Source: an uncultured Clostridium sp.
GTDB taxonomy: Bacteria > Bacillota > Clostridia > TANB77 > CAG-508
DNA length: 64,000 bases
Direction: 5' to 3'
Assembly (NCBI GenBank): GCA_905213875.1
Contig: CAJMJN010000004.1
Coordinates: 2,370 to 66,369, forward strand
Shown: piece by piece, positions 30,702 to 64,000 of the stretch
How positions within the stretch are numbered: position 1 is the first letter of the stretch
Layout of the letters: each line of letters begins with the position of its first letter
Made by a program: the position numbers and the translations under genes
The notes under the pieces: generated by a model
Told to the model about the DNA's origin: nothing
The model's input: only the letters and a program-made list of their open reading frames with translations
Database searches by the model: none

Positions 30702-31069
30702 TGTAAATTCCTCCTTTCTGCAGTAATTTTACTATTAAATTTTTATTAATTCAATAGTAAATTATTTCTAGGTTTACTAATAGATTTCAGTTTTTTACAA
30801 TTTTTTTGAAATTTTTTTCGATTTAATTTTTGAATTCAATTTAAATAAAAAAATAAATTTTGAATAAAACTTTAGATAAATTAAAATATTTATATTAAAG
30901 AAATTATAATTATCAATTATCTTAACACATTTTTAAAATCACATCAACTATATTTGTTATAATTTTACATTTCTTTTACATTTTATACTATAATCTTTAC
31001 TTTTTATTTTAACTAATATAAAATAACAGAAGATTGGTTATACTAATAAAAAAACTTTGGAGGAAACAA

Positions 31070-37747: not shown

Positions 37748-39037
37748 ATGATGGATAATACAATATTGTATCAAGACATCGCAAAAAGAACTGATGGTGA
37801 TATTTATGTAGGAGTTGTTGGTCCTGTAAGAACCGGTAAATCTACTTTTATAAAAAGATTTATGGACTTATTGGTTATTCCTAATATAGATAATGAATAT
37901 AAAAAAGAAAGAGCAAAAGATGAATTACCACAAAGTGCTGGTGGTAGGACTATAATGACAACTGAGCCAAAATTTATTCCAAATGAAGCTGTTGAAATAA
38001 GTTTAGCAAATAACTTAAAATTCAAGACACGTTTAGTTGATTGTGTAGGTTATTTAGTTGATAATGCAATTGGATATTTAGAAGATGATATGCCAAGAAT
38101 GGTAAAAACTCCTTGGTCTGAAGAAGAAATTCCTTTTGAAAAAGCAGCTGAAATAGGAACTAAGAAAGTTATAGAAGAACACTCTACTATTGGAATTTTA
38201 GTTACAACAGATGGCTCTGTAACAGGCATTCCAAGAGAAGATTATATAAAGCCAGAAGAACGAGTAGTTGCTGAATTAAAAAGCTTAAATAAGCCTTTTG
38301 TGATATTATTAAATTCTACTGACCCTAATTCTGATTATACTAAAGAATTATCTAAAACATTAGCAGAAAAATATGATACAACAGTTATTCCTATAAATTG
38401 TGAATACCTTGATATTAATGATATAAACAATATTTTTTCAAAAATATTATATGAGTTTCCTGCTGACCAAATTAGAATAAAATTTCCTAGATGGGTTGAT
38501 GGACTTGATTTTTCACACCCATTAAAAGCTGAATTATTTAAAGAAATCAAAGAAGCTTTTGAAAATGTAAATGTTTTAAAAGATATTTCCTCTTGTACTT
38601 CAAAAATTAGTTCCACTGAAATAATTTCTAATACTGTAATTACAGATATTCAACTTGGAACTGGAAATGTAAATGTTCAAATAACTTTAAAAGAAGAATT
38701 ATTTTATAAAGTTCTTTCTGAAATTACTGGTGTTGATGTAGCTAATGAAGGTGATTTATTTAAAATAATTTCAGAACTATCTATTACAAAGAAAAAATAT
38801 GACAAAATATCTTATGCCTTAGATGAAGTTGAACGTAAAGGTTATGGAATTGTTACACCTTCTATCGATGAACTTGTTTTAGAAGAACCTGAAATGGTAA
38901 AACAAGGTTCACGTTTTGGAGTAAGATTAAAAGCAACTGCACCTTCTATACATATAATAAGACCTAAACAGATACTTTTTTTATCCACCTCGCTCATTTC
39001 CAAGCCGAGGTGGAAATTTATTTTTAGCTTAACATGA
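37748..39037 (+). CDS. spoIVA: Stage IV sporulation protein A, 5' segment of a split gene (homology ends at about 38962; the last ~25 codons are element-derived)
   Basis: YQDIAKRTDGDIYVGVVGPVRTGKSTFIKRFM...DELPQSAGGRTIMTTEPKFIPNEA is the SpoIVA Walker-A N-terminus. Similarity runs to ...GSRFGVRLKATAPSIHIIR and is then replaced by PKQILFLSTSLISKPRWKFIFSLT. SpoIVA proteins are about 490 aa and continue VD[IV]E[ST]E... after this motif, so about 85 C-terminal residues are missing. Confidence 0.9.
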   Translation: MMDNTILYQDIAKRTDGDIYVGVVGPVRTGKSTFIKRFMDLLVIPNIDNEYKKERAKDELPQSAGGRTIMTTEPKFIPNEAVEISLANNLKFKTRLVDCVGYLVDNAIGYLEDDMPRMVKTPWSEEEIPFEKAAEIGTKKVIEEHSTIGILVTTDGSVTGIPREDYIKPEERVVAELKSLNKPFVILLNSTDPNSDYTKELSKTLAEKYDTTVIPINCEYLDINDINNIFSKILYEFPADQIRIKFPRWVDGLDFSHPLKAELFKEIKEAFENVNVLKDISSCTSKISSTEIISNTVITDIQLGTGNVNVQITLKEELFYKVLSEITGVDVANEGDLFKIISELSITKKKYDKISYALDEVERKGYGIVTPSIDELVLEEPEMVKQGSRFGVRLKATAPSIHIIRPKQILFLSTSLISKPRWKFIFSLT

Positions 39038-40563
39038 TTTTTTTCAATTCCTTGTACATATATCCTATCGATTTTTTCATGTATAAATTCTTTTGTTAAT
39101 TCAAATGTATCAAAATCAAAAAACTTCTTTATTTTTTGTTGATTTTTTCCAGTTTCATTTGCATCTCTATTTACTTTTAATTGTATTAATTGACTTTTAT
39201 AATCCATAATTTCGTCTTGATATTCATTCTTGATTTTTTCAAACTCATCATCAGTAATTTTATTCATAGTATATAATTTTATTAAATTAGCTTTATTCTT
39301 TTCCTTTTCATTTATTGCATTTTCTAAAATTTTTATATTTTTTTCTAATTTAAAATCCTTTTTGTCTAACCTAGAATTTGCTTTCAACATTTCTTTAAGT
39401 ATCATTGATTTCTTTTCTAATAATTCAGAAAAAACCTCACTTAATATACTATTTAATTCCTCAGTTCCAATATATGTATGATTATTACAATTTTTTAAGC
39501 CATTCTTAGCATATTCAGAACATATCCAAAATTCTTCTTTTGCTGTTGGTCTATGCTTTCTTCTCCAAAATTTTTTTCCATCATTAGTACATATCAATAA
39601 ATTAGAATATTGGTATTGATTATTCCAACGATCTCCAGTTCCAGTATACTTATTACTTCTCTTTTCCATTATTTCATTGCATTTTTGCCATATATCGTCA
39701 TTTACAATTTGTGGTACAATATTCTCTTCAGCTTTATAGGTAATCCATTCCTCTTTTGGAATTTCTATTCTTTCCTTACTCATAAAATCTATCACCTCTG
39801 TTTTTTTACCACAATAACATCCTTTATATTTTGGATTTGTAAGTATATTTTTTATTGTAGAATAAGCAAAAACATCTCCTTTTCTCGTTAATTTTCCCTC
39901 TTCTGCTAGTTTCTTTCCAATTCTCCTTATTCCAATATTTCCTGTGGAATATAATTCAAAAATTCTCGAAACAATTTCTGCTTCTTCATCGATTTTTTTC
40001 AATTTACAATTGTCTTTTTCATATCCCCATATAACATTACTGCCAAGCACTCTTCCTTTTTCTATTGCTCTATTAAATCCAAATTTTACCCTTTCTGAAA
40101 TTCTTCTACTTTCATCCTGTGCAAGTGATGCCATAAGTGTTAATCTCAATTCTCCTTCTTGTTCAAGAGTATTAATATTATCTAATTCAAAATATATACC
40201 TTTTCCTCTTGCTAATAAGTTTCTAGTAAACTGTAGTGTGTCTAATGTATTTCTTGCAAATCTACATACTTCTTTTGTTAAAATCAGATCATATTTATCA
40301 TCCATACCATCCTGTATCATATTATTAAAGTCCTCTCTTTTCTTTATTGATGTTCCTGTTATTCCACTGTCACTATAGCCTTGAACTAATGTCCATTTAG
40401 GTATAGATAAAATTTTGTTTTTGTAATAATCATCCTGATTTATTAGTGAATTTTTTTGTTCATTCTTTCCTGTAGAAACTCTTGCATAATATGTCACCCT
40501 TAAAGGTAAATCATATATTGTTTTTCCTGACATTAATGCTTTTCTAATTTCATATAATTCCAT
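38842..40563 (-). CDS. Large serine recombinase (element-proximal)
   Basis: N-terminal resolvase catalytic domain (YARVSTGKNEQKNSLINQ with catalytic Ser, LTKEVCRFARN), a recombinase domain, a Cys-containing zinc-ribbon region and a long coiled coil. The ORF reads through the junction, so its last ~40 codons are antisense spoIVA. Confidence 0.9.
   Translation of the reverse strand: MELYEIRKALMSGKTIYDLPLRVTYYARVSTGKNEQKNSLINQDDYYKNKILSIPKWTLVQGYSDSGITGTSIKKREDFNNMIQDGMDDKYDLILTKEVCRFARNTLDTLQFTRNLLARGKGIYFELDNINTLEQEGELRLTLMASLAQDESRRISERVKFGFNRAIEKGRVLGSNVIWGYEKDNCKLKKIDEEAEIVSRIFELYSTGNIGIRRIGKKLAEEGKLTRKGDVFAYSTIKNILTNPKYKGCYCGKKTEVIDFMSKERIEIPKEEWITYKAEENIVPQIVNDDIWQKCNEIMEKRSNKYTGTGDRWNNQYQYSNLLICTNDGKKFWRRKHRPTAKEEFWICSEYAKNGLKNCNNHTYIGTEELNSILSEVFSELLEKKSMILKEMLKANSRLDKKDFKLEKNIKILENAINEKEKNKANLIKLYTMNKITDDEFEKIKNEYQDEIMDYKSQLIQLKVNRDANETGKNQQKIKKFFDFDTFELTKEFIHEKIDRIYVQGIEKNHVKLKINFHLGLEMSEVDKKSICLGLIICIEGAVAFNLTPKREPCFTISGSSKTSSSIEGVTIP
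38984..39014 (+). terminator. GC-rich hairpin about 20 nt inside the element's left end
   Basis: TCCACCTCG-(13 nt)-CGAGGTGGA followed by AATTTATTTTT on the plus strand. It would stop spoIVA-derived transcription from entering the element antisense to the recombinase. Confidence 0.4.
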
Positions 40564-40671: not shown

Positions 40672-42303
40672 TTAACTAGCAATCTTTTGCTTATCTATGT
40701 ACTTAATTATTTTTTTCTTTTTATATAATAATTCTATTGTAATTCCAACTTTTAAAACTATTTCTAAATTTGCTAATCCTGTATCATCCAGTCTCTCTAC
40801 TTTTATTTTATCTAAAATTACATCTACTAATTGTGCTGGTATTCCTTGAAAAAATTCAAAATCCTTTTCAAAACTTTTCTTTATTATTTGCATCTTATCA
40901 TCTATTTCATCCTTATTTCTTGACATTATAAGTTTATTTTTTTCTTCTTCATAGGCTGATATTTTTTCGTTATATATATTGTTTTCTTCCTCAAATTCTT
41001 TTTCATCAATAAGTTCTGTAGTATATAATTTTATCAATTTTTTCTTTTCTTTCTTCAAGCTTTCAATTTTATTTTGTAGTGAAGTTATATCTATTTCAGT
41101 AGAACAGTCTTCAAAGCACTCTTTACATTTATTTAATAAATTCTCTATAAATTTTTCTTTATTTATAAACATTTCATTAAATATTCGTTTTAATACTTCA
41201 TCTAATGTTTCTGTATATATATTAACATTGTTTGCACATCCACTTATACCTTTTTTCTTATATAATGCACATTGCCAAAATTCTCTTCCTCTACTAATTG
41301 TTCTCCAATAACATTGTCCATCTTTTTTGCAATAAATTTTTCCAGAATATTTATATTTTGTATTATAACCAGTTGTTTCGCTTTTAGCTCTTTCACTTCT
41401 TTCTTTAAAGATTTCATTACATTTTTCCCAAATTTTTTCATCAACAATTTGTGGTACAACGTCATCTGTCGCTTTATATTCTACAATTTCATCTTCTCCA
41501 AGATTTACTCTTTGTTTAGTCATGAAATCTATAACTCTTGTCTTATTCCCAGAATAAAAGCCTTTATATTTCGGATTTGTAAGTATATTTTTTATTGTAG
41601 AATAAGCAAATGTTTCTCCTTTTTTTGTTAATATTCCTTCTTCTTCAAGTTTTTTTCCAACTTTTCGTATTCCAATATCACCTGATGCATATATTTCATA
41701 AATTCTTTTTACAATTTTTGCCTCATCTTCGTTCATTTTTAATTTACAATTATCTTTTTCATAACCCCATATAGCATTATTTCCCAATACTCGTCCTTTT
41801 TCTATTGATCTTTTAAAACCAAACTTTACTCTTTCTGAGATTCGTCTGCTTTCGTCTTGTGCTAATGATGCCATTATTGTTAATCTTAATTCTCCCTCTT
41901 GTTCTAATGTATTTATATTGTCCAGTTCAAAATAAACTCCCTTTCCCTTTGCCAATAAACTTCTAGTTAATTGTAATGTATCTAATGTATTTCTTGCAAA
42001 TCTACACACTTCTTTTGTCAATATTAAATCATACATATCATTAAGTCCATCAGAAATCATTTCATTAAAATCTTTTCTTTTTTTTGTAGAAGTACCTGTT
42101 ATACCTCTATCACTATATCCATCAACTAATGTCCACATTGGTGTATCTAAGATTTTATTTTTGTAATATATCTCTTGGTTATCTAACGAGTTTTTTTGCT
42201 CGTCCTTTTCTGTTGATACTCTTGAATAATATGTAACTCTTAGTGGTAAATCATATATCGTTTTTCCTGACATCAATTCTCTTCTTATTGTATATAAATC
42301 CAT
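40672..42303 (-). CDS. Large serine recombinase (second, paralogous)
   Basis: MDLYTIRRELMSGKTIYDLPLRVTYYSRVSTEKDEQKNSLDNQ... is closely similar to the first recombinase over the N-terminal ~300 aa and divergent in the C-terminal coiled coil. It has its own terminator hairpin (AAGCCC-TTAT-GGGCTT, about 40655-40670). Confidence 0.9.
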   Translation of the reverse strand: MDLYTIRRELMSGKTIYDLPLRVTYYSRVSTEKDEQKNSLDNQEIYYKNKILDTPMWTLVDGYSDRGITGTSTKKRKDFNEMISDGLNDMYDLILTKEVCRFARNTLDTLQLTRSLLAKGKGVYFELDNINTLEQEGELRLTIMASLAQDESRRISERVKFGFKRSIEKGRVLGNNAIWGYEKDNCKLKMNEDEAKIVKRIYEIYASGDIGIRKVGKKLEEEGILTKKGETFAYSTIKNILTNPKYKGFYSGNKTRVIDFMTKQRVNLGEDEIVEYKATDDVVPQIVDEKIWEKCNEIFKERSERAKSETTGYNTKYKYSGKIYCKKDGQCYWRTISRGREFWQCALYKKKGISGCANNVNIYTETLDEVLKRIFNEMFINKEKFIENLLNKCKECFEDCSTEIDITSLQNKIESLKKEKKKLIKLYTTELIDEKEFEEENNIYNEKISAYEEEKNKLIMSRNKDEIDDKMQIIKKSFEKDFEFFQGIPAQLVDVILDKIKVERLDDTGLANLEIVLKVGITIELLYKKKKIIKYIDKQKIAS

Positions 42304-42526: not shown

Positions 42527-42946
42527 TTATTCCCATAATATTTTCTTGGGTACATCATACCCTGTTATGATTCCACTCTTTAAATGATAAGATTTAGTAT
42601 TTTTATTATAATTATAAATAGATGAATTCCACTTTCTAAAAGCTCTATTATTTATTGTTTTTCTACCACCTGATAATTCTCTACTAGCTTGTATATGCAT
42701 TTGTCTTAATTGTGCATACGCTATATCACCATCTTTTCTTTGCTTTCTTTTTTTAGCAATATATTGCATAGTTTGAGCATTATGCTTTTTTTTGTTTATT
42801 TCTTTTCTTTTTTCTTTTTCTAATTTATATCTAAAATCTTTAGTCACTACTCTTGAAACTTTATATTTTGAAATATTTAATTCTTTCGCAATTTCTATTT
42901 GCTTCATTTTATCTTCAAAATACATTTTTAAAATTTTCTCATTCAT
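42527..42946 (-). CDS. Helix-turn-helix DNA-binding protein (element regulatory module)
   Basis: MNEKILKMYFEDKMKQIEIAKELNISKYKVSRVV has a sigma-region-4/HTH-like N-terminus followed by a basic region. Confidence 0.55.
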   Translation of the reverse strand: MNEKILKMYFEDKMKQIEIAKELNISKYKVSRVVTKDFRYKLEKEKRKEINKKKHNAQTMQYIAKKRKQRKDGDIAYAQLRQMHIQASRELSGGRKTINNRAFRKWNSSIYNYNKNTKSYHLKSGIITGYDVPKKILWE

Positions 42947-43016
42947 AGTACCCTCCTGCAACTTTTTGCTAACAGATTTTAAATATGAAGAAACTAATAG
43001 AGCTTATATTAAAACT

Positions 43017-43175
43017 CTATTTAATTTCTAAATCTTCCATTGCTTTTTTAAAATTTTGCTCACTTAATTTTTTTACAGTTTTATATCTTTTATTTCTTTC
43101 TAATATTTCTATGATCTCTCTAGCAAATATTCCTAAACTGAAAGAGATTATAGAAAAAATTAAATATTTTAGCAT
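43017..43175 (-). CDS. Small single-TM ORF (52 aa)
   Basis: MLKYLIFSIISFSLGIFAREIIEILERNKRYK... The ATG lies 1 nt after the stop of the upstream gene (translational coupling). It is below the track's size cut-off. Confidence 0.3.
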   Translation of the reverse strand: MLKYLIFSIISFSLGIFAREIIEILERNKRYKTVKKLSEQNFKKAMEDLEIK

Positions 43176-43176
43176 T

Positions 43177-43464
43177 TTATTTTTTCTCCTTTTTCTCTTT
43201 CATTATTATACTAGCTAATCTTTTTACTTCTGTATTTCCAAATTTTTCATAAAACATTGTTACTTCTTCTTTTATAGACTTGGCTGTTATGTCTGTATTG
43301 CTATTTTTTAATGTATGGAATGCTAACTGTGCATAAGCAGTAATAAGTTCTATTTCGGTTTTAGAATTATTTTTGCTTATTACATCTTTTGTTTTACTAA
43401 AAGTCTTTGTTTCTTTTAAATCTTTTACTTCTGTAACTTGATTTGTATTTCCTTTTTCATCCAT
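43177..43464 (-). CDS. Hypothetical protein
   Basis: 95-aa ORF with RBS GGAGG. I recognise no motif. Confidence 0.45.
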   Translation of the reverse strand: MDEKGNTNQVTEVKDLKETKTFSKTKDVISKNNSKTEIELITAYAQLAFHTLKNSNTDITAKSIKEEVTMFYEKFGNTEVKRLASIIMKEKKEKK

Positions 43465-43520
43465 ATTGTTACCTCCTTCTAATATTAGGAGTCCTATTTT
43501 TTATATTCGATGTTGCATTT

Positions 43521-43691
43521 TTATAATTTTTTTCTATTTTTTGTTAAAGTTTTATAAATCATATATTTTATTTCTTGCATTAAGTCTTCATCAATTCCAT
43601 TCCTTAGCTTACTCATACTTGTAATTAGTGGATTATAATCATCTAAAATTTTCAATATTTCTACATCATCTAAATTAAAGTTATTAAACAT
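43521..43691 (-). CDS. Small ORF (56 aa) overlapping the stop of the sigma-like gene
   Basis: MFNNFNLDDVEILKILDDYNPLITSMSKLRNGIDEDLMQEIKYMIYKTLTKNRKKL. The ATG overlaps the upstream stop. The arrangement resembles the small-ORF/sigma-like pairs of Firmicute conjugative or integrative elements. Confidence 0.35.
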   Translation of the reverse strand: MFNNFNLDDVEILKILDDYNPLITSMSKLRNGIDEDLMQEIKYMIYKTLTKNRKKL

Positions 43692-44118
43692 TGTTTTTTC
43701 CTCCTAGTAATTTTTTTGTAATCTTTTCTTGTGCCTTATTTCTTATTCTCCATATTGTTGTTCTTTCTACATTCATTTCTTTAGCTATTTGATTTATACT
43801 TTTTTCTTCTTTATATAAAGCAAAAAGCACCATCTTTTCTTTTCCAGACAATGCTTTCGCTACATTATATAATTTTTCATCACAAAAAAGTCTCTCGAAT
43901 TCAAGAGCGGACTTTAACTCATCGACACATTTATTAAGAACAGCATCAAATAAACTGCTACTTTCCATATCCTCACAAATATCCAAATTGATTTCTTTAC
44001 TGTTTAAATATTCATAATTATTTTTTATGTATTTTTTTCTAACATTTATAATCAACTTTTTTAAATATGATTTTTCTTCTTTTGATAATTCTTCTTGTAA
44101 ATAATTTTTTCTTTCCAT
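43684..44118 (-). CDS. Sigma-70 region-4-like / HTH regulator
   Basis: The C-terminal KEKMVLFALYKEEKSINQIAKEMNVERTTIWRIRNKAQEKI is a typical region-4 HTH. Confidence 0.6.
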   Translation of the reverse strand: MERKNYLQEELSKEEKSYLKKLIINVRKKYIKNNYEYLNSKEINLDICEDMESSSLFDAVLNKCVDELKSALEFERLFCDEKLYNVAKALSGKEKMVLFALYKEEKSINQIAKEMNVERTTIWRIRNKAQEKITKKLLGGKNNV

Positions 44119-44461
44119 TTATTATCTCTCCAATTTCTAAAAATTGGACAAATATCTAAAAGAGAAAGAAAAACAAATATTAAATTATTTTTTCTTATTC
44201 TTTATAATTTACTTTTACATATTTTTATCACTCCTAACAAATAATCTTTAATTAATAAAAAATCTCTTGTACTTTATTATTTCTTCTAATGTATTATTTT
44301 TCTAACTCTTAAAGACTATTTGTCCTATTGGAGATTATACTTTTTAATGTTGTTTCATTGTAAAAACGGCGATAGATGGCTAATAAACGGCGAAAAATGG
44401 TTAAAATTATTCATAATCAGTTATATTTTTAGTTTTATTTGTAAAAATCTTCCATTTTGTA

Positions 44462-44490
44462 TTGTGTTTACATAATTTTAGTGATATAAT
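44462..44490 (+). promoter_or_regulatory. Candidate promoter of the Spo0A-like gene
   Basis: TTGTGT, a 17-nt spacer, then TATAAT (44485-44490), about 35 nt upstream of the ATG. Confidence 0.35.
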
Positions 44491-44525
44491 ATTGTTGATT
44501 TATAAAATTGTTAGGAGAAGTTATC

Positions 44526-45230
44526 ATGGTAAAGATTCTTTCAGTCATTCAAAATATTGAGCAAAATTCTCAACTTTGCCAATACCTTACGCAAGATAAC
44601 AATATTGATTTTAAAATTACTAGTGATGAAGTTTCTGTTTTGAAACAGTATTACGATTTTAGACCTGACATTTTTATATTAGACACCAGTTTTAAAAATA
44701 TAAAATATAGTGATGTAATCAATGAGCTTTCATTAGATGATACTGAACAATTCAAATGTAATACCATATTACTTTATAACTCTACTACTGAATTATTAAA
44801 TCTTGCAAATTGGTCTAAAATATATAATATATTTTTAAAAACTACAGATTATAAAAATATTTTAAAAGCTATATATGAAATGTCTAATTACACTTTAGAA
44901 AGAAAAATTGATAGGCTATTTTTAAAGTTACATATTCCATTAGAAAGTAGCCCTTCAAATCGTGTTAGAAAAACATTAATTAAATGTTGTAATTCGCCTA
45001 ATTTACTTGGCAATTTAAACACTTTATTTAATACAGTTGGCAAGGAACTTGGAACAACCGGTGAAGGTATTCGTTCTTCTTTTAGAACTGCATTAAAGCC
45101 TTTAAATGAATTTAAAGATAAAGAAGATTTGCCTTTTGCAATTTATAAATTCTTTCCAAAAGGCGAAGAAGTTACCCCAAAATTATTTTTAGATATTAGC
45201 ATATATTATTTGAAAAACACAAAAAAATAA
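44526..45230 (+). CDS. Spo0A-like regulator paralogue (atypical receiver plus a Spo0A_C-like DNA-binding domain)
   Basis: The N-terminal ~120 aa have a CheY-like layout (DIFILDTSF...). The C-terminal LFLKLHIPLESSPSNRVRKTLIKCC...LFNTVGKELGTTGEGIRSSFRTALKPL parallels the Spo0A effector-domain pattern (..GVPAHIKGY.YLR.AI...LY..IA....TT.SRVERAIRHAI). Confidence 0.65.
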   Translation: MVKILSVIQNIEQNSQLCQYLTQDNNIDFKITSDEVSVLKQYYDFRPDIFILDTSFKNIKYSDVINELSLDDTEQFKCNTILLYNSTTELLNLANWSKIYNIFLKTTDYKNILKAIYEMSNYTLERKIDRLFLKLHIPLESSPSNRVRKTLIKCCNSPNLLGNLNTLFNTVGKELGTTGEGIRSSFRTALKPLNEFKDKEDLPFAIYKFFPKGEEVTPKLFLDISIYYLKNTKK

Positions 45231-45272
45231 CAGATAAGTTTTAGTATGATCAAAAACTTATCTGTTATTTTT
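45230..45272. terminator. Bidirectional terminator between the Spo0A-like gene and the radical SAM gene
   Basis: ACAGATAAGTTT...AAACTTATCTGT stem flanked by an A-run and a T-run, between convergent genes. Confidence 0.6.
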
Positions 45273-46465
45273 TATTTATTATTTTTATAATCATTATATT
45301 GATTAATAATATCCACTACACTATTACTTATGTTATCTGAACTTGATATTACTGAATTTAACTTTCTTCCTATAATATCATACATCTCATCTATTTCATT
45401 TTCTTGTACCTTATTATCTATTATCATATTGAATATAGGAATATTATTTTCTAATTTTTCTTTTGAAGATTTTACAAGATCTAATCCGTTCATATTATCC
45501 ATAGCATATTTTGTAAATATCATTTCTGGTTTTAAATCTACAATTTTATGATATGTTTCTGTTCCATCTTTTGCTGTACCAACTATATCAACAAAATCAA
45601 GTTTTTTTATTGCATCAACTATCTTGTTTGTTATATTTATATCATTATGTGCAATTAAAGTTCTAATTTTTCCATTTGAATATATTTTATCAAAATCTAT
45701 TATTTCTTCTTTTAAAGCATTTCCAAAATAATGATCCTTTCCATTTTGTGTTTGAATTATATCTGCATTTGGAACAATTACTATACTTTTTTCAAATTCA
45801 CTTTGTTTTTTATATTCTACAGTTTTGATATTCTCAAATTTTCTTAATCTTTTTACACTATTTTCTAATTCTTTTTCTTCTATTTCAAATAGTTTTTCAT
45901 TTTTTTCTGCCCTTTCTCTAATAGGCATAAACTTCAAAAATTTCCATTTTTCTATTTGATAGTTATTTAAAAATTCTCCTAATTCATCTAATTTATCAAC
46001 ATTAAGCCTGCTAACAACCGTGTTTATTCTTACTTTTATATTCTTGTTTTTAGTTTTTTCTAAAAGATTTTTTATAATATCTAAATGATTATTTTCTTTA
46101 CCTAATGCTAAATTGATATCATTTTCAATTGAATCAATAGATAAATTGATTTCATCAAGTGTATTTAAAATATCTTCTACATATTCGTTATCGTTCTTTG
46201 ATAAGTAAATTCCGTTCGTTACTAATTTATTATATAATCCTCTTTCTTTTGATTCTCTCATTAATTCATTTACTCTTGGATATAATACCGCTTCTCCACC
46301 AGTCCAAGTAATATGGTTTATCCCACTTGCAATTAAATGATTTAATACTCTTTCATTTTCTTCAAAAGATAGATTTGGTATATTGTTAAATCCAAAACAA
46401 TATTTACATCCTTGATTACATTTAGTTGTTATTTTCCAACAAACTTTTTTCTTAATCATATACAT
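45272..46465 (-). CDS. Viperin-like radical SAM enzyme fused to a C-terminal degenerate receiver (REC-like) domain
   Basis: CNQGCKYC (CX3CX2C) in the context [17 protein letters not shown]. By eye I could align it collinearly to animal viperin: [26 protein letters not shown] vs [34 protein letters not shown] vs FKINSVINRFNV, and [12 protein letters not shown] vs RWKVFQCLLIEG. Residues ~270-390 have a CheY-like alternating pattern, but with Lys where the phospho-acceptor Asp is expected. Confidence 0.7.
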
Positions 46466-46604
46466 CCTCTTTTCATATATAAAATCTCTTTTTACACATT
46501 TATATTATATATGAAAAGCAATTGGAAAACTATTCCTAATATTTTAACATCCCTTAAATATCATTGAAAGCAAAAAACATCCTATTTCTAGGACATTTTT
46601 TACT

Positions 46605-47480
46605 TTATATATTTTTTAAATATTCTTTAATGAATTTTTTATCTACCTTTGTCAATTCACCTTTTAGATAAATTAAGTTTAATTTTAGGCTAGGCAATTC
46701 TATTGGCATTTCAACTTCATATAATTCTTTATTATTTAATTCATTCTTTACAGCCTCTTTTATAACATATGCAATTCCCATATTTTTCTTAACTGCTTCA
46801 ACTCTTACTTCGGTTGCATCACACATTATATCAGCATTAATATTAACATTGTATTCTTTTAAAAGTTCCTTTAATCGTTTTGTTGCTTTTGTATTTTCAA
46901 GGTTTAAAATACAATTCAATTTTTCAATTTCTTTTATATCTGCAATTTTCAATGGTGCTTTTGAAACAAATATATTATTAATTTTTAATAATTCTTCTAT
47001 TTCAATATTGCTATTTTCAATCTCTGTATCTATTATTGCAAAATCAATTTCATGATTTTGCAACAAACTCATCATTTTGTTTATATCAACTTCACATATT
47101 ATTTTTATATTAAGATCTGGATAATCCCTCTTAACTTTTTCTATTTTTTCCATTAGTAAATAACTTGTAAAATGTGATGGGCATCCTATTTTTATGCAGC
47201 CACTTGATATATCATTCTTATCCTTTGCTAATTTTTCTGCAAAGTCAAATCCTGATATTGATTTATTTACTATTTCATATAATTCTTTGCCATTTTCTGT
47301 TAGAGTTACTCCTTTGTTTTCCCTATTAAATAGTTTTAAATTTAATTGTTCTTCTAAATTTGATATTTGTGTACTAACATTTGGAACTGATAATCCTAAT
47401 TTCTCTGCTGCCTCTGAATAACTTTTGGATTGAGCAACTTTACAAAATATTCTATATAAGTTCAAATTTACATTTGACAT
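46605..47480 (-). CDS. LysR-family transcriptional regulator
   Basis: N-terminal wHTH (LYRIFCKVAQSKSYSEAAEKLGLSVPNVSTQISNLEEQLNLKLFNR) and a C-terminal substrate-binding domain. Confidence 0.9.
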   Translation of the reverse strand: MSNVNLNLYRIFCKVAQSKSYSEAAEKLGLSVPNVSTQISNLEEQLNLKLFNRENKGVTLTENGKELYEIVNKSISGFDFAEKLAKDKNDISSGCIKIGCPSHFTSYLLMEKIEKVKRDYPDLNIKIICEVDINKMMSLLQNHEIDFAIIDTEIENSNIEIEELLKINNIFVSKAPLKIADIKEIEKLNCILNLENTKATKRLKELLKEYNVNINADIMCDATEVRVEAVKKNMGIAYVIKEAVKNELNNKELYEVEMPIELPSLKLNLIYLKGELTKVDKKFIKEYLKNI

Positions 47481-47492
47481 ACAATCACACTC

Positions 47493-48062
47493 CTATAAAA
47501 TTTTTCTTAATTCTATTTCAGCTTTCTTTATAAAATAATCATTTGTATCTACTGGAAGATTTAATCTTTCCAACTCTTGTTTTATTTTATCTATTGTATC
47601 TAATTGTTCATTTTCTTCAATCTCAATTAGCTTATCACCATTTAGTACATCTTTTATACATATTTGCAACTCATTTTTCTTATAAAGATAATCCATTTCC
47701 TTAATTTGCATAATTGCTTTATAATCAATTGCTTCTAAAAATTTTTTTCCATCATTTGAATCTATAATTTTACAATCAACTTTACTTTGTTTTACTATAT
47801 TTCCTTCTTGATCAATTTCTTTTTTCTTATATGTTAGTTTACTTTCTCTATATTTGTTTGGAATGTATCCTTCAACATTTCGTAAAATTATTGCTTTACT
47901 TAATATATCTCGTTCTGACATATTCTTTATATTAATTGTATTCGGTATATAATAAATATCGTCCAGTAAATATCTTTCTACAAATTGAAATCCTTTGCTT
48001 TCTAATATTTTGCATATTTCTTCTACAGTACATTTTAATTTGACTGTTATTTCATTACTCAA
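47493..48062 (-). CDS. CYTH-domain protein (CyaB / triphosphate-tunnel family), paralogue A
   Basis: 189 aa with a beta-rich pattern starting NEITVKLK (where ExExK is expected) and ending in a C-terminal helix. It is clearly paralogous to 63335..63925. Confidence 0.65.
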   Translation of the reverse strand: MSNEITVKLKCTVEEICKILESKGFQFVERYLLDDIYYIPNTINIKNMSERDILSKAIILRNVEGYIPNKYRESKLTYKKKEIDQEGNIVKQSKVDCKIIDSNDGKKFLEAIDYKAIMQIKEMDYLYKKNELQICIKDVLNGDKLIEIEENEQLDTIDKIKQELERLNLPVDTNDYFIKKAEIELRKIL

Positions 48063-48204
48063 CTTAATATATCTCCTTTACAGTATCACTCTTAAATTAT
48101 AACATATTATGTAAATTTTGTAAAGTTTTAACCAGTCTCTTTTCTCCTTTATTCCCTTAATATATTGCTTTTTATAAAACAAAAAAGATTAGCACTACGC
48201 TAAC

Positions 48205-48462
48205 CTACTCTTCCTCTTTTAAAAAGTCATCTAACTTTTTATCAAATAAAATACTAAATTTAATCAACAATTTTAATGAGCATGTTTTTACTTCATCATT
48301 TAGTGATTCAATTCTTCTTAAATAATCGTGGGACATATCCAATATTTCTGCTACTTCCATTAATGACATTCCACTTTCTTTTCTATACTTTTTTATATTT
48401 TTGTATATAATAGGCATATAATCTTTTGATAATAATGCCTTTAACTTTTCGTTATTCTCCAT
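48205..48462 (-). CDS. XRE-family HTH regulator
   Basis: 85 aa. ..ESGMSLMEVAEILDMSHDYLRRIES.. is an HTH_3-type motif. Confidence 0.8.
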   Translation of the reverse strand: MENNEKLKALLSKDYMPIIYKNIKKYRKESGMSLMEVAEILDMSHDYLRRIESLNDEVKTCSLKLLIKFSILFDKKLDDFLKEEE

Positions 48463-48644
48463 TTAAAACACCTCTTAACAAACTTATTTTTCCATAAATT
48501 AGATAAAAAATATGTAACTTATTTGTCCCATTTAGTGTTTTTATGGTATAATACTGAATAGTAATAAAAAAGTGGCGATTTTTGACAAGTTTTGTCGATT
48601 GTATTGATTATTTGTAAAAAAGTATTACTATATACTTATAGCAA

Positions 48645-48902
48645 TTACTTTTTTCGATGAATATCGACTCTTGGCTCTAGTTTATTTGCTTTTGGATTGG
48701 CAATAAAAAGCAAATAAGGATCTACATCAAGTGCTTTTGCTATATTTTCAATAGTAGGAATTGATGGACTGTATTTTCCTTGTTCAATATCTGATATATA
48801 ATGTGTACTTAAACCAGACAACTCTCCTAACTTTTCTTGTGAGTAGTCTTGCATAAATCTATAATACTTTACATTTTTGCGAAAAATATCTATTAACTTC
48901 AT
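48645..48902 (-). CDS. XRE-family HTH regulator
   Basis: 85 aa. NVKYYRFMQDYSQEKLGELSGLSTHYISDIEQGKYSPSIPTIENIAKAL is a canonical Cro/C1-type HTH. Confidence 0.85.
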   Translation of the reverse strand: MKLIDIFRKNVKYYRFMQDYSQEKLGELSGLSTHYISDIEQGKYSPSIPTIENIAKALDVDPYLLFIANPKANKLEPRVDIHRKK

Positions 48903-48941
48903 TATATATCACCACACTTTCTAATACCATTCTTTTTAGTA

Positions 48942-48950
48942 TGGTATAAT
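48942..48950 (+). promoter_or_regulatory. Extended -10 element (TGGTATAAT) upstream of the membrane REC gene
   Basis: TATGGTATAAT lies divergent from the XRE gene at 48645..48902. A near-identical TATGGTATAAT occurs at 48542-48552, divergent from the other XRE gene. Confidence 0.35.
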
Positions 48951-49063
48951 TTTGTAGCAATATTCACAATGAAGTATATAGCCCAAACATTTTTCTATTA
49001 TAATAAAATACTTTAAAAATCCCAGTATTTTTATTAAAATTTATAGAAAGGAATTCATAAAAA

Positions 49064-49693
49064 ATGTTGTATTTTTTTATTGGTCTTAGTATTGTATTTT
49101 TTGTGCTTATAATCATATTATTTTATAAGATAAATACCTATAATAATAAATTAGCTAAACTAAATAACACTATTTCACAAAAGGAAAGTAAGATTTCTTT
49201 TCTTAATAATGAAATTACAAGGCTAAAAAATTCAGCACAAATATTAGAAGAAAAAGAATTTGAATCTTTAAAGTCAAATCCTTTTAAATTCTCTGAAATT
49301 CCAGAAGAATATAACGGAAAATTTGAAGGTAAAAAAGCCTTAATTGGTAATTATGATAATTTTTCTTCTAAATTAACTCGTACAATGTTAATGAATTTTG
49401 GAATTTCGGCAGATATTGTTACTACAGGTATTGATATATATGACAGAATAAAAAATGGTTGTACATATGATATTATTTTTACAAACAATATTTATCAAAA
49501 AGGCTATACTGGTCCTGAATTATTACATAAATTAAAAAACATTAACGGTTTTAAAACCCCAGTTATTATTCATACTATATCACATGATGCAAGAGAATAC
49601 TTTGTAAATACTATTGGTTTTGATGATTATTTAGAAAAGCCAATAAAATATGAAGAACTTAAAAATATCTTAAACAAATTTTTAAATACTTAA
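49064..49693 (+). CDS. Membrane-anchored coiled-coil protein with a degenerate receiver domain
   Basis: N-terminal TM segment ([17 protein letters not shown]), a coiled coil, then a CheY-like domain ([10 protein letters not shown]...[19 protein letters not shown]...KPI) with Asn at the phospho-acceptor position. Confidence 0.6.
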
Positions 49694-49736
49694 GAAAAGA
49701 GCCACTTCAAAAGTTGGCTCTTTAATATATTATAAA

Positions 49737-51582: not shown

Positions 51583-52635
51583 CTATTGCATATAATAATC
51601 TTTATACCATTTAGCAAATTTTTTTAATCCTTCTCTTAATGATGTACTTGGTTTAAAATTCATATCATCTTCCATTTGCTTTGTATCTGCATAAGTTATA
51701 GGTACATCCCCGGGTTGCATCGCCACTAATTCCTTATGAATTTCAAAATCATAATTTTGGGGTAAAACTTTTGCCTCAATTAATTCTTCTTGTAATATAT
51801 TAATAAAATCCAATAAATTTTCAGGTTGACCTTTTCCAATATTATATATTTTATATGGAGGTATTGGTAATCCATCTTCTCCGTTCTTTTTTATTGGAAT
51901 CTTATTTATTGTTCTTATTATTCCTTCTACTATATCATCTATGTAAGTAAAATCTCGTTCACATTTTCCATAATTATATATTTGAATTTTTTCACCATTT
52001 AATAGTTTATTTGTGAATTTAAAATATGCCATATCAGGTCTACCTGCTGGTCCATATACTGTAAAAAATCTCAAACCTGTTGTTGGAATATTATATAATT
52101 TTGAATAGCTATATGCTAAAAGTTCATTAGACTTTTTTGTTGCTGCATATAATGATACAGGCATATCTGTTTTATCATCTGTAGAATACGGTATTTTTTT
52201 ATTTACTCCATAAACAGATGAACTTGATGCATATACTAAATGTTCTATTTCATATTTTCTGCAACATTCTAATATATTATAAAATCCTATAATATTTGAT
52301 TGTATATATTCATCAGGATTAGTTATACTATATCTAACTCCTGCCTGTGCTGCCAAATTTACAACAATATCTGGCTTATATTTTTCAAATATCTGTCCTA
52401 TTTTTTCTTTATTCGCTATATCACATTTAATAAATTCAAATTTATCAAATTTTTGTAATTCTGATAGTCTATATTCTTTTAATTTTACATCATAATAATC
52501 ATTTAAATTATCAATACCTATTATATGTATCTTTTCATTTTTCAAATTTAATATTCTTTTTGCAAGATTTGCTCCAATAAATCCTGCAACTCCAGTAATT
52601 AAATACACTTTTATTTTATCGTTCACATTCTTCAC
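51583..52635 (-). CDS. NAD-dependent nucleotide-sugar epimerase (UDP-glucuronate 4-epimerase-like SDR)
   Basis: ITGVAGFIGANLA Rossmann motif, YAATKKSNE (YxxxK) catalytic motif and RFFTVYGPAGRPDMA, typical of the UDP-GlcA/Glc 4-epimerase subgroup. Confidence 0.85.
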   Translation of the reverse strand: MKNVNDKIKVYLITGVAGFIGANLAKRILNLKNEKIHIIGIDNLNDYYDVKLKEYRLSELQKFDKFEFIKCDIANKEKIGQIFEKYKPDIVVNLAAQAGVRYSITNPDEYIQSNIIGFYNILECCRKYEIEHLVYASSSSVYGVNKKIPYSTDDKTDMPVSLYAATKKSNELLAYSYSKLYNIPTTGLRFFTVYGPAGRPDMAYFKFTNKLLNGEKIQIYNYGKCERDFTYIDDIVEGIIRTINKIPIKKNGEDGLPIPPYKIYNIGKGQPENLLDFINILQEELIEAKVLPQNYDFEIHKELVAMQPGDVPITYADTKQMEDDMNFKPSTSLREGLKKFAKWYKDYYMQ

Positions 52636-53224
52636 TTTCCTTTATATCAACTCTCTCATCTATTCTTTTCAATATTTGATTTAATACTTGTTTTCTATTT
52701 TTAGATGTATCTATATACTCTATCCCATATTTAGGGCATTCTTTCTTTAATAATTGATTCTTCTCATTCCATTTGTCAGCATTTGTTGATAAATTCTCAT
52801 CTGATATTCCATATGTCCAATCTTTTTCTGTATCATATTCTCTACATAATTGCATAATTCCTTGTTTGTCAAGATCTCCATGTCCTAAACAAACACAAAT
52901 TAAATTTCCCATGTCAAGTAGTTCTTTTGCATATTTAGGCTCTAGTTGTCCACTTTCAAGAATAGTTCCATAATTTTTAGTATCTTGCTTTATGGAAGAT
53001 TTATAAATTTCTAATATAATCCTTTGAAATTTATCACTATGTACTAATTCTTTTCTTGCTTTTATGTTTTTAGTATAATATTCCTCTCTACCTGTTCCTC
53101 TTATTATTCCCCATATAATTGAATCTGCATGAATTATATTATACTGATTAAATTCATCTTTAATCATATTCCCTAATGTTGTTTTTCCCGCTCTTGCTAC
53201 TCCTATTATTAAAACATTTTTCAT
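52616..53224 (-). CDS. P-loop NTPase / small-molecule kinase-like protein
   Basis: Walker A GVARAGKTT at the N-terminus. About 200 aa. Its 3' end overlaps the start of the downstream epimerase gene by 20 nt. The substrate is unknown. Confidence 0.55.
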   Translation of the reverse strand: MKNVLIIGVARAGKTTLGNMIKDEFNQYNIIHADSIIWGIIRGTGREEYYTKNIKARKELVHSDKFQRIILEIYKSSIKQDTKNYGTILESGQLEPKYAKELLDMGNLICVCLGHGDLDKQGIMQLCREYDTEKDWTYGISDENLSTNADKWNEKNQLLKKECPKYGIEYIDTSKNRKQVLNQILKRIDERVDIKESEECER

Positions 53225-53245
53225 ATTAAATAAGTTCCTCCAATT

Positions 53246-54214
53246 TTATAAATATAAATTCATTTCATTTGAAAAGTCTTTTATTTCATCTTTATATTTT
53301 TGTGATATTACATCTGTATTAAAGTATCTATATATATCTAATAAACACTCATACATATTATCATCAAAATCAATTTTTTCACTATGTATTACTTTATTGT
53401 TTTGAATAATAGAAACATTTCCATCTTTTAATTTATTCAAATCTTTATCATAAAACAAAAATTCTCCTTTAATAACAATGTTATTTTCACATATAACAAT
53501 TACTTCCCTAATTTTGGTATTCGTTGCAAAATCACTCTCATGAATTACATAAACATCATTTTTCTTTGTAAAAATTTTACTATAGCCATGTTTTTCTAGT
53601 ATTCTATTTCCTCTTTCCATGGCTTTTTCTTCTTCAAGTAGCACTTGAGTATCTTTAGGATTATCTAGCAGAAACTGTGAAATATATACTTGATGTGGTA
53701 TATCATGTTCTATATTTCTTGTGACTTTTTTGTACATTCCCCTACCATTGAAGCTTTCTTCTGTCCTGTTTTTAGAAAAATTTGTATAAATAATAACTGG
53801 TTTTAATTCTTTTTGAACTATATATTCTTTAATTTTCATAACAATTTTTGAATACTCATAATTATGCACCATTGCGATATTTAAATCGTCATTTTCTTCA
53901 AAAAACTCCTTATTTACAATAAATGGTTTTTCGACCAATATATCTCTAATATTTAATTGTTTACATTCCATTATAATATCTAAAAATACACTTTTAGGAG
54001 TACATATATCAACAATAATATTGTTAACATCTAGTTTTTCTTTTTTTATTGTGCTTTCTATACTAGAATATACTTTTGAATCTTTTATATTTTCATTTTT
54101 TATTTTACCATCAATATCTACAAAATAAATTCTTCCTATTTTTTCAAACTTTTTATATGAATAATAATGCAAAAAACCTGCTTTTCCTGTTCCTACAATA
54201 ATTATATCTTTCAT
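53246..54214 (-). CDS. Gfo/Idh/MocA-family NAD(P) oxidoreductase
   Basis: N-terminal IIIVGTGKAGFLHY Rossmann motif and the EKP motif (VEKPF) characteristic of the family. Confidence 0.7.
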   Translation of the reverse strand: MKDIIIVGTGKAGFLHYYSYKKFEKIGRIYFVDIDGKIKNENIKDSKVYSSIESTIKKEKLDVNNIIVDICTPKSVFLDIIMECKQLNIRDILVEKPFIVNKEFFEENDDLNIAMVHNYEYSKIVMKIKEYIVQKELKPVIIYTNFSKNRTEESFNGRGMYKKVTRNIEHDIPHQVYISQFLLDNPKDTQVLLEEEKAMERGNRILEKHGYSKIFTKKNDVYVIHESDFATNTKIREVIVICENNIVIKGEFLFYDKDLNKLKDGNVSIIQNNKVIHSEKIDFDDNMYECLLDIYRYFNTDVISQKYKDEIKDFSNEMNLYL

Positions 54215-54228
54215 TTTTTACTCCTTTT

Positions 54229-55251: not shown

Positions 55252-55253
55252 TC

Positions 55254-57468: not shown

Positions 57469-57476
57469 AATTTTTC

Positions 57477-58919: not shown

Positions 58920-58938
58920 TTTATATCTCCTCATATTA

Positions 58939-59724: not shown

Positions 59725-59727
59725 ATT

Positions 59728-61694: not shown

Positions 61695-61773
61695 TTATAG
61701 TCCTCTTTCTAAAAAAAGATACAAATAAAAAACTCTACAAGCTATTTATTTGTATCCTTTGTGGTTTACTTTA

Positions 61774-63925: not shown

Positions 63926-64000
63926 AACTATATTCCTTTTCTTTTTTCTTAAATTATAACATAAAGCAACATTTTTTACCACATTTTAACATTTTTATTA

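Follow-up and report, generated by a model that had tools for sequence, protein, structure and literature searches.

A viperin-like radical-SAM gene recurrently linked to CYTH and LysR genes, beside the serine-recombinase arm of an element in spoIVA of an uncultured Clostridium

The window analyzed here is a stretch of 64,000 nucleotides from an uncultured Clostridium sp. (contig CAJMJN010000004.1 of assembly GCA_905213875.1, positions 2,370 to 66,369), low-GC DNA with a GC content of ca. 25%. Five consecutive genes on its minus strand, between 45272 and 48902, were described in an earlier note as a co-oriented module of two Cro/C1-type (XRE) repressors, a CYTH protein, a LysR regulator, and a viperin-like radical S-adenosylmethionine (SAM) enzyme with a receiver (REC) domain. 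All five open reading frames (ORFs) were confirmed at these coordinates. Three of them – the viperin-like, CYTH and LysR genes – recur together in two lineages of loci, and in the window they lie beside the regulatory and recombination arm of an element that interrupts the sporulation gene spoIVA.

The viperin-like gene is at 45272..46459 (−). Its ORF as listed spans 45272-46465, but the likely start is the ATG at 46459, with the ribosome-binding site AGAGGA, which gives a protein of 395 aa. The protein consists of a viperin-like radical-SAM part (residues ~1–255) and a pseudo-receiver (~265–395), assigned with Pfam, NCBIfam, PADLOC, a profile search of the PDB and Foldseek. The Pfam Radical_SAM family matches with an E value of 1e-19, and the PADLOC models for prokaryotic viperins (pVips) match with an E value of 6e-41. 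A profile built from 52 sequences of the family matched viperins in the PDB with E values of 1e-31 to 1e-27, and MoaA with an E value of 1e-19. The AlphaFold2 model has a confidence score (pLDDT) above 90 at roughly residues 10–250, and of 47–85 in the receiver-like part. Used as a Foldseek query, it found viperins as its top 15 matches, and as 19 of the top 20, with TMt values of 0.73–0.81. Viperins are the best matches in both sequence and structure, so the gene was rightly called viperin-like.

The cysteines of the CxxxCxxC motif (C14, C18 and C21, in the numbering of the 395-aa protein) and the GGE motif (G54-G55-E56) are invariant in all 52 sequences. In viperin, the triphosphate of the nucleoside triphosphate (NTP) is held by the motifs K-I-N-[ST]-V and R/K-W-K. 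The window protein has K-V-R-I-N-T-V and E-K-W-K-F-L aligned to the viperin K-I-N-S-V and R-W-K motifs, [KR]-I-N-T-V and K-W-K are kept in all or nearly all of the 52 sequences, and residues N146 and W172 are invariant or nearly so. The features that define viperin are an N-x-H motif and a C-terminal extension that closes over the base. Here the V-N-Y-H-F-T of viperin aligns with V-C-W-K-I-T, and the cysteine in the place of the asparagine (C7) is invariant (52/52). The best NCBIfam match, NF038283 (viperin_w_prok), spans profile positions 2–257 of 281; the last ~24 positions are absent, and the receiver-like domain stands in their place. The score of this match is 126.3 bits, below the cut-off of 180, and ten sampled homologues score 116–171 bits, all below 180 as well. 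Against TIGR04278 (viperin), the window protein scores 47.6 bits, with a cut-off of 450.

The C-terminal tail had been described as a REC domain. It matches Pfam Response_reg with 22.7 bits, below the cut-off of 30.2, and in 45 family members the position of the phospho-acceptor is held by lysine (29), glutamate (8), arginine (3) or serine (2), and never by aspartate. By its residues the tail is a pseudo-receiver, predicted to be non-phosphorylatable. Two full-length homologues with 30–32% identity, P0141 and P0176 (survey proteins and loci carry P and L numbers), have the cysteines of CxxxCxxC replaced and are probably catalytically dead.

The CYTH gene, at 47493..48062 (−), encodes a protein of 189 aa of a variety termed type 1 here. 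Taken singly, this protein had no match to Pfam CYTH at an E value of 0.01 and none in a PDB sequence search, and it scored 48.4 bits against NCBIfam TIGR00318 (cyaB), below the cut-off of 57.95. A profile from 35 homologues matched structures of the CYTH, or triphosphate-tunnel metalloenzyme (TTM), type in the PDB with an E value of 1e-13, and one cluster of homologues carries PF01928. The AlphaFold2 model has a pLDDT of 92, and every top Foldseek match is a triphosphate-tunnel or class IV cyclase structure, with TM-scores of 0.70–0.76; the matches include 2EEN, 7NSA, 1YEM and 2FJT, over a range of 0.6–0.76. At the level of the fold, as judged from this model and the family profile, the CYTH assignment is correct. 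The signature of the family is not borne out: an N-terminal motif N3-E4-I5-T6-V7-K8, invariant in 40 homologues, replaces ExExK, and two PDB alignments place it in different registers, with ExExK in neither. The invariant residues include N3, E4, I5, T6, R61, K79, K81, E122, K137 and E147, and the charges of the tunnel are mostly invariant. The protein thus shares with CyaB, Saci_0718, PH1819 and ThTPase the eight-stranded tunnel fold and its lining of conserved arginine, lysine and glutamate, and differs from them in having N-E-I-T-V-K for ExExK.

The LysR gene, at 46605..47480 (−), encodes a LysR-type transcriptional regulator of 291 aa. Its matches to Pfam HTH_1 (71.8 bits) and LysR_substrate (79 bits) are each above the cut-off, and it is a complete, canonical LysR, as had been proposed.

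The remaining two of the five genes encode helix-turn-helix (HTH) proteins of 85 aa each: XRE_a, of the Cro/C1 type, at 48645..48902 (−), and XRE_b at 48205..48462 (−). Both match Pfam HTH_3 (E values of 2e-12 and 1e-6, respectively), which agrees with their original identification, and PADLOC matches of XRE_a are HTH_VI, control-protein and capH-like. Their membership in the module fared less well. An XRE gene is upstream in only 29 of 80 loci, homologues of XRE_b were found as only 15 ORFs among the first 99 loci, and, from the signals described below, the two genes appear to be transcribed separately. By their distribution the XRE genes are peripheral and restricted to the closest relatives.

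Loci with the radical-SAM–receiver gene were collected in two scans of one-genome-per-species contigs, with homologues of 39–100% identity. They come from metagenome-assembled genomes (MAGs) of uncultured gut Clostridia of human, rabbit, mouse and chicken. ORFs and families were defined with our own scripts and local iterative profiles rather than curated annotation, with duplicates removed. The main neighbor counts refer to 70 distinct loci; some earlier tallies use 80 loci or the first 99 loci. LysR adjoins the radical-SAM gene in 64 of the 70, and CYTH is present in 53. A serine recombinase is downstream in 38, and a MazF-like toxin is found in 25. Across uncultured gut Firmicutes, ca. 90 loci in different species-level genomes have the arrangement, which is far beyond chance. 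The earlier note would have taken its proposal as refuted if homologues of the viperin-like gene lacked a recurring link to CYTH or LysR genes; such a link was found. The kinship among the loci means that these counts overstate the number of independent events.

One of the MazF/PemK-type toxins, at 10413-11168 of L060, has an N-terminal membrane segment and a C-terminal extension; its gene directly follows a sigma-like gene, with no obvious MazE.

A second lineage of loci has the order CYTH > radical-SAM–LysR, in which the last two are a single protein of ~561 aa, or CYTH > radical-SAM > LysR. The LysR half of one fusion protein (P0181) is 37% identical to the window LysR over its full length. 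The MAGs are labelled Bacilli, Erysipelotrichaceae or Clostridia, the receiver tail, Spo0A-like gene and recombinase of the window lineage are all absent, and the flanks are unrelated. Since most loci are on MAG contigs, errors of assembly could in principle produce fusions and frameshifts; against this, the radical-SAM–LysR fusion was found in four protein clusters and at least six genomes. The trio survives a changed gene order, a gene fusion and a new genomic setting, which is good evidence that the three proteins cooperate. It is highly probable that CYTH, LysR and the viperin-like radical-SAM protein form a functional unit.

The CYTH protein of the second lineage, termed type 2, is more canonical, with E-x-E and W-I-R-L-R. 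Some second-lineage loci have two CYTH genes, a type 2 before the radical-SAM gene and a window-like type 1 after LysR (L190, 8774-9376; L191, 11006-11581; L202, 9517-10101).

It might be supposed that the loci are recent copies of one element, syntenic by descent only and with no shared function. All loci with the radical-SAM–receiver gene indeed represent a single element family in uncultured gut Clostridia that are related to each other, and some copies are nearly identical. However, gene order is kept down to 39% protein identity, flanks and recombinases differ, and the order itself differs between the lineages, which have seen independent events: the radical-SAM–LysR, radical-SAM–PfkB and ToxN–CYTH fusions and the splitting-off of the receiver as a separate gene. 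This explanation, already largely refuted by the second lineage, has very little left to recommend it.

Other variants of the cassette were found among these loci and in a search of 1.8 billion representative proteins, with about 1,150 homologues at E < 1e-10. The search showed three architectures: the radical-SAM–LysR fusion already described, a fusion of the radical-SAM protein to a PfkB kinase, and the radical-SAM–receiver protein without cluster cysteines. In 21 distinct loci the CYTH gene is a ToxN–CYTH fusion (Pfam ToxN, 146 bits). ToxN also adjoins CYTH as a separate gene in two loci (L053 and L054), and is found alone in one (L091). Upstream of the ToxN–CYTH fusion at 4638-5871 of L060 is a ToxI-like tandem repeat of 36 nt × 2.8. 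A repeat of this kind before ToxN is the hallmark of a type III ToxI antitoxin RNA, and the ToxI of Pectobacterium is an array of 36-nt repeats. The relatives thus resemble ToxIN in having a ToxN domain after 36-nt tandem repeats, and differ from it in that ToxN is fused to CYTH inside the cassette; there is no ToxN in the window. A PfkB kinase is fused or adjacent in nine loci, none of which has CYTH, and PfkB and CYTH look, from this distribution, like alternative accessory parts. In one variant with the radical-SAM–PfkB protein (L096, 9076-10752), an unrelated radical-SAM-like protein of 558 aa is encoded between stand-alone receiver and Spo0A-like genes.

These comparisons bear on the simplest account of the radical-SAM gene, that it is an ordinary stand-alone pVip making 3'-deoxy-3',4'-didehydro-nucleoside triphosphate (ddhNTP) chain terminators, to which the CYTH, LysR and XRE genes are functionally unrelated. 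The matches to the PADLOC pVip models and to viperins in sequence and structure speak for it. Like pVips and the viperin RSAD2, the protein has kept the partial TIM barrel of the radical-SAM enzymes, CxxxCxxC, GGE and the residues of the triphosphate motifs. The differences are more extensive. The window protein and every homologue sampled are below the curated threshold, N-x-H has given way to an invariant C-W, and the C-terminal segment that recognizes the base is cut short, with a pseudo-receiver, LysR or PfkB in its place. The family is linked to LysR and usually to CYTH, a linkage conserved in two architectures with fusions included, and in the window it is not in a defense island. Viperin pairs with CMPK2, and pVips with nucleotide kinases; some variants of the cassette likewise pair with a kinase, but it is of the PfkB type and not a nucleotide monophosphate kinase. 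The cassette is not a canonical pVip, and a plain pVip beside unrelated genes is quite improbable.

Another explanation is that the trio is a piece of LysR-regulated nucleoside or nucleotide metabolism, which makes or salvages a modified nucleoside or cofactor for the cell and is carried on mobile elements as incidental cargo. CYTH, as a triphosphatase, and PfkB, as a kinase, would be alternative phosphate-handling steps, and LysR a pathway-specific regulator; LysR regulators typically control small metabolic operons. The mutual exclusion of PfkB and CYTH fits this explanation, as do the neighbors in the second lineage, which look metabolic (DeoD-, amylase- and acetate-kinase-like, judged from N-termini only), and the scans of viral contigs, in which there was one related locus. 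It does not account for the repeated recruitment of ToxN and MazF toxins into the cassette, and no further biosynthetic genes are conserved beside the trio. The distribution is patchy, with several copies per MAG, and a block of 95–99% identity is found in different species-level genomes with unrelated flanks – a pattern typical of accessory or conflict genes. On balance, a purely metabolic role is improbable.

The signals between the five genes suggest more than one transcription unit. XRE_b is followed by a terminator-like hairpin at 48186-48206 (−), identified in a terminator scan. Just upstream of CYTH, at 48096..48124 (−), is the best promoter-like site of the region, TTTACA-17-TG-TATAAT, a consensus match only, with 11 of 12 positions and an extended −10. 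CYTH and LysR, separated by a gap of 12 bp, are probably co-transcribed. Directly 3' of LysR, at 46572..46596 (−), the sequence can be read as a hairpin with a T-run, like an intrinsic terminator; such a structure is present in 39 of 45 distinct orthologous spacers, with 23 different stem sequences, versus 0.3% of shuffles. Alignment of the orthologous intergenic regions points to a candidate promoter of the radical-SAM gene at 46504..46548 (−), with a conserved box GTTAAAATATTAGGAATAGTT at 46528-46548, a −10 TATATAAT at 46504-46511, and no good −35. The pattern AATA[GT]-N15-28-TAWAAT is found in 38 of 45 orthologous intergenic regions versus 18% of shuffles. A conserved box and a −10 without a recognizable −35 fit the layout of an activator-dependent promoter. 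LysR is the obvious candidate for the activator, with predicted binding at 46504-46548. At the other end of the radical-SAM gene, a hairpin with a 12-bp stem at 45231..45264, between its stop and that of the convergent gene orf240, resembles a bidirectional terminator, and a similar hairpin follows the radical-SAM gene of L014.

Taken together, the five genes are co-oriented but, as predicted from the terminators and promoters between them, probably form about four transcription units and not one operon. Separate transcription with unrelated expression had been named as an outcome that would speak against the module; the first half of this is what these predicted signals suggest. No riboswitches or other known RNAs were found at 37–51 kb of the window.

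The most constant neighbor of the radical-SAM–receiver gene is neither CYTH nor LysR. In 69 of the 70 loci, it is a convergent gene for a Spo0A-like regulator, which in the window is orf240, at 44526..45230 (+). The encoded protein of 234 aa has a degenerate receiver and a DNA-binding domain of the Spo0A_C type, as identified with a family profile, which matched the Spo0A C-terminal domain (1LQ1 and 1FC3) with an E value of 2e-9 and receiver domains with an E value of 3e-7. The orf240 protein itself had no Pfam match, and a paralogue in L014 matches Pfam Spo0A_C. The receiver of the family lacks the acidic pair, and its aspartate is not invariant. By these residues, orf240 is Spo0A-like and is not Spo0A. 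This gene, overlooked by the earlier note, is a core partner of the cassette in the lineage of the window.

Two 21-bp direct repeats found with TRF, AAACGGCGATAGATGGCTAAT and AAACGGCGAAAAATGGTTAAA, at 44364..44404 (+), are a candidate operator. They are ~65–100 bp upstream of the −35 of orf240, in the divergent region that it has in common with a sigma-like gene. Canonical Spo0A boxes (TGNCGAA) are not enriched, with 5 found and 5.6 expected, and there are none in the module or at the 21-bp repeats.

The sigma-like gene, at 43684..44118 (−), opens the regulatory and recombination arm of the element. It encodes a sigma-factor-like or HTH protein of 144 aa, with matches to Pfam Sigma70_r4, HTH_38 and DUF1492, all of them weak, and to sigma factors or transcriptional regulators in PHROGs. 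It is downstream in 32 of 80 loci. Another HTH protein of 144 aa, orf144a (42527..42961, −), has a weak match to Sigma70_r4 and is conserved beside recombinases, with homologues in 33 ORFs of related loci. Small ORFs lie between the sigma-like gene and this HTH gene, and the arm, downstream of orf240, is completed by two large serine recombinases. Recombinase 1, of 543 aa, is at 40672..42303 (−) and has the Pfam domains Resolvase, Recombinase and Zn_ribbon_recom. Recombinase 2, of 573 aa, also identified with Pfam, is at 38842..40563 (−), and its 3' end crosses the junction between element and chromosome. The length of its ORF follows the flank, being 537, 560, 573 or 619 aa.

The chromosomal side of this junction is the 5' part of spoIVA, at 37748..38962 (+), with the ATPase and middle domains (Pfam SpoIVA_ATPase and SpoIVA_middle) and no SpoIVA_C. 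The SpoIVA_middle match covers positions 3–167 of 179; the intact SpoIVA of relatives is 492 aa long. The gene fragment is at its native locus, the recombinases abut the break, and recombinase 2 overlaps the truncated gene. The element is inserted in spoIVA, and its arm of sigma-like and serine-recombinase genes borders the cassette. The junction was placed at 38948..38967 from alignment ends – the match to the window ends at 38948 in L002 and at 38967 in L014 – and has the core ATACATATAATAAGA, encoding IHIIR. In all element-bearing genomes, SpoIVA is broken after APSIH[IM]I[RS], which is APSIHIIR at codon ~405 in the window, where the interrupted gene is listed at 37748-39037 (+). The break codon is identical in the window, in six contigs of the same species (L015–L020) and in three other species (L024, L048 and L049). 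By describing the module on its own, the earlier note left out this element, which alters the likely biology of the genes.

Related elements, in which the pair of recombinases is a different one, border on the 5' or the 3' part of another gene, which we take to be cotJC from what is known of CotJC and from the CotJB- and CotJA-like genes beside it. Halves of this gene were seen at 15557-15994 of L012 (−), 9286-9705 of L040 (−) and 15693-16043 of L005 (+). The 5' half ends LQEDLAAD and has the CotJB- and CotJA-like genes upstream, and the 3' half begins EQKARATYE. The elements are found in both orientations relative to the gene.

A block of 7.2 kb, 42539-49686, which contains the whole module, has 95% DNA identity with L001, from another species-level genome. 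Around the block, L001 has unrelated flanks and a different recombinase, which shows recent horizontal movement. In the lineage of the window, the trio is likely to belong to the recombinase element, together with the Spo0A-like gene.

Two narrower definitions of the element were considered. One, suggested by L014, was a recombinase unit of 6.3 kb (38.95-45.27 kb) beside a chromosomal radical-SAM module; it was rejected because orf240 accompanies the radical-SAM gene in 69 of 70 loci, irrespective of recombinase and site of insertion. L014 (3933-7563) has LysR and a frameshifted radical-SAM–receiver gene beside a contiguous spoIVA that has an internal deletion of 43 aa between VNEG repeats, and has no CYTH, convergent Spo0A-like gene or recombinase; decay of a copy or misassembly may account for this locus. 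The other definition, 38.95-49.70 kb, follows the block shared with L001 and is not secure: L001, L005 and L006 share more flank genes despite their different recombinases.

At the far edge of the shared block is a gene for a transmembrane, coiled-coil and receiver-like protein of 209 aa (49064..49693, +; Pfam Response_reg, 30.6 bits), whose homologues number 17 ORFs in the first 99 loci, counting duplicates. No partner fragment of spoIVA or cotJC is beside this end. In L018 (5338-6692), an insertion sequence with an rve transposase and an HTH ORF lies between the histidine-phosphatase gene and this receiver-like gene, corresponding to ca. 49711-49716 of the window.

The 3' part of spoIVA (SpoIVA_C) was not found with tblastn in the 64-kb window, in 9 kb beyond it, or in the surveyed loci. 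The element is consequently larger than 34 kb or has been rearranged. Stand-alone SpoIVA_C ORFs (P0391, P0396–P0399, P0402 and P0407) have an element-derived prefix, NVCVCLEPIIH[LM]IK, before the TNV of SpoIVA. Their occurrence in many public genomes means that a split spoIVA is common, and the prefix common to many metagenomes suggests a widespread right attachment site (attR) of one element family in spoIVA. None of these ORFs could be tied to the species of the window, and two that were considered as its missing 3' part were rejected since they belong to unrelated elements. In another element family, the gene nearest the spoIVA 3' fragment encodes a SAM synthetase, MetK (L211, 1358-2476; L212, 806-1924; L213, 4352-5470), with a DUF3560 gene next to it in L211 and L213; these element ends have no similarity to the window.

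Further from the junctions, the chromosomal part of the window encodes a LonC/LonB-like AAA protease of 809 aa at 31034-33463 (+), a few kb upstream of spoIVA. Upstream of the module, 52616-63982 (−) is a cluster, continued in L180–L182, that is not a typical capsule locus. It encodes two APH-type kinases, two PHP-domain proteins, an AdoHcyase-like protein, a TIM-barrel protein of the AP_endonuc_2 type, an HPr-kinase-like protein and a NUDIX hydrolase, followed by UDP-glucose dehydrogenase, epimerase and histidine phosphatase.

Intervening elements in sporulation genes include skin in sigK and SPbeta in spsM. The window element resembles them in having large serine recombinases at one end and in interrupting, at a precise position, a sporulation gene expressed late in the mother cell. 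It differs in its targets, spoIVA and, in relatives, cotJC; in its two tandem recombinases; and in having its own Spo0A-like and sigma-like regulators and the radical-SAM cassette. The skin of C. difficile is another element of this kind (PMC5025042).

This likeness underlies the main rival explanation, that the cassette is a control module of the element with no antiviral role. Its proteins would read nucleotide, SAM or redox status and set the expression of the sigma-like gene and recombinases, so that timed excision rebuilds spoIVA, or cotJC, in sporulation. In keeping with this, the cassette always adjoins the arm of Spo0A-like, sigma-like, HTH and recombinase genes though recombinase types and sites vary. 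The cut in spoIVA is at an identical codon in at least four species-level lineages, and relatives cut cotJC. A receiver tail is accompanied by the Spo0A-like gene in 69 of 70 loci, and the two remain neighbors where the tail is encoded separately; homologues without the cluster cysteines exist. An enzyme fused to a regulator is also typical of metabolite-sensing regulators. BirA, NadR and PutA are such fusions, which sense their own product, and like them the radical-SAM–LysR protein unites an enzyme with a regulator that binds DNA. Unlike them, it has the radical-SAM part N-terminal to a complete LysR, an arrangement of which no description was found, and in the window the two are separate genes. 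On the other side, the second lineage keeps the trio without the recombinase, the Spo0A-like gene or the sporulation-gene context, which indicates that the three genes serve a function that needs no element. The missing 3' part of spoIVA was sought without success over 25 kb of the window and a further 9 kb past it, and the full set of catalytic cysteines is present in all 52 aligned family members. An exclusive role in element control is rather unlikely.

No described defense or biosynthetic system that matches the cassette was found, and the earlier note could name none. PADLOC has no model for the combination of CYTH, LysR and a radical-SAM protein. In the literature, no report was found of a pairing of CYTH with radical-SAM enzymes or of its fusion to ToxN, nothing relevant was found on viperin with CYTH or on prokaryotic viperin with LysR, and a preprint on viperin evolution does not mention CYTH or LysR partners. 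The closest precedent for a viperin-related radical-SAM protein in a multi-gene system is Ophion, described in Pseudomonas, an anti-jumbo-phage system of the radical-SAM protein OpnA with PHP and phosphoribosyltransferase (PRTase) proteins (bioRxiv 10.1101/2025.09.30.679545). Like the cassette, Ophion is centered on a radical-SAM enzyme akin to pVips yet phylogenetically distinct from them. The enzyme is partnered there by PHP and PRTase, not by CYTH and LysR, and Ophion has no regulator fusion or receiver tail.

The best explanation overall is that the cassette is a LysR-controlled modified-NTP module that serves defense or control of the element, a reading we put forward tentatively and short of calling it probable. 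One promoter would drive CYTH and LysR, and LysR, in response to a small molecule, would activate the promoter of the radical-SAM gene. The radical-SAM enzyme, with SAM and a [4Fe-4S] cluster, would modify an NTP much as viperin does; the extra invariant cysteine suggests that its chemistry may be somewhat different. CYTH would bind or hydrolyze the triphosphate of the substrate or product, as the turnover or sensing part. The pseudo-receiver tail would contact the convergent Spo0A-like protein and so tie the trio to the sigma-like and recombinase arm. The output would be a conflict function, either anti-phage or the stabilization or control of the element; a conflict output is suggested by the repeated wiring of the ToxN RNase into the cassette in relatives. 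The pairing of functions around a triphosphate with LysR as the switch, as first proposed, is made reasonable by the recurrent linkage and the fusions. The specific chemistry and logic, deduced from sequence features, are doubtful.

Several observations weigh against the modified-NTP module. The score of 126 on viperin_w_prok against a cut-off of 180, the absence of N-x-H, and the absence of the last ~24 profile positions mean that the substrate may not be an NTP. The two distant homologues without the cluster cysteines fit a sensor role better than an enzyme role. With a degenerate ExExK, catalytic activity of the CYTH protein is uncertain, and it may be inactive. CYTH is also dispensable: in L016 (8398-8967), on a 260-kb contig of the same species, a C>T change makes the stop Q92* in CYTH while LysR and the radical-SAM–receiver gene are intact, and CYTH is wholly absent from one subclade of the radical-SAM–receiver loci. 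Since the radical-SAM gene of L016 is intact, CYTH is no indispensable antidote. The flanks of the second lineage, judged from N-terminal sequences only, are metabolic and not defense islands, and the scans of viral contigs found a single related locus and nothing of the fusion clade. Finally, the radical-SAM–receiver loci all belong to a single group of related MAGs and a single element family, so they cannot be counted as 70 independent events.

A more specific form of the modified-NTP reading, which we regard as speculative and unlikely to hold in full, is that the trio is a nucleotide-signal system: the radical-SAM enzyme would write a modified NTP, LysR would read it, and CYTH would bind or erase it. 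A LysR effector domain that reads the modified NTP would explain the radical-SAM–LysR fusion, and a CYTH protein that binds or erases it would explain the ToxN–CYTH fusions as signal-gated RNase effectors. The circuit would be the control center of the elements that split spoIVA and cotJC in gut Clostridia, and the receiver tail and Spo0A-like protein would couple it to excision or to abortive infection.

Enzymes of the viperin type are single-gene, or enzyme-plus-kinase, producers of chain-terminating nucleotides. The family described here, a sister of the viperins, is tied both to a ligand-sensing transcription factor, with which it is fused in one lineage, and to a triphosphate-tunnel protein; RNase toxins and a kinase come and go as further members of a small cassette of three to four genes in ~3 kb. 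If the nucleotide chemistry is as proposed, this would be the first viperin-like product to be sensed or turned over by dedicated partners, and the concept of antiviral nucleotides would extend to regulated or signaling nucleotides. The splitting of spoIVA and cotJC widens the list of sporulation genes interrupted by recombinase elements, and suggests that such elements bring their own Spo0A-like and sigma-like regulators into their hosts, the abundant, uncultured, small-genome Clostridia of the gut.

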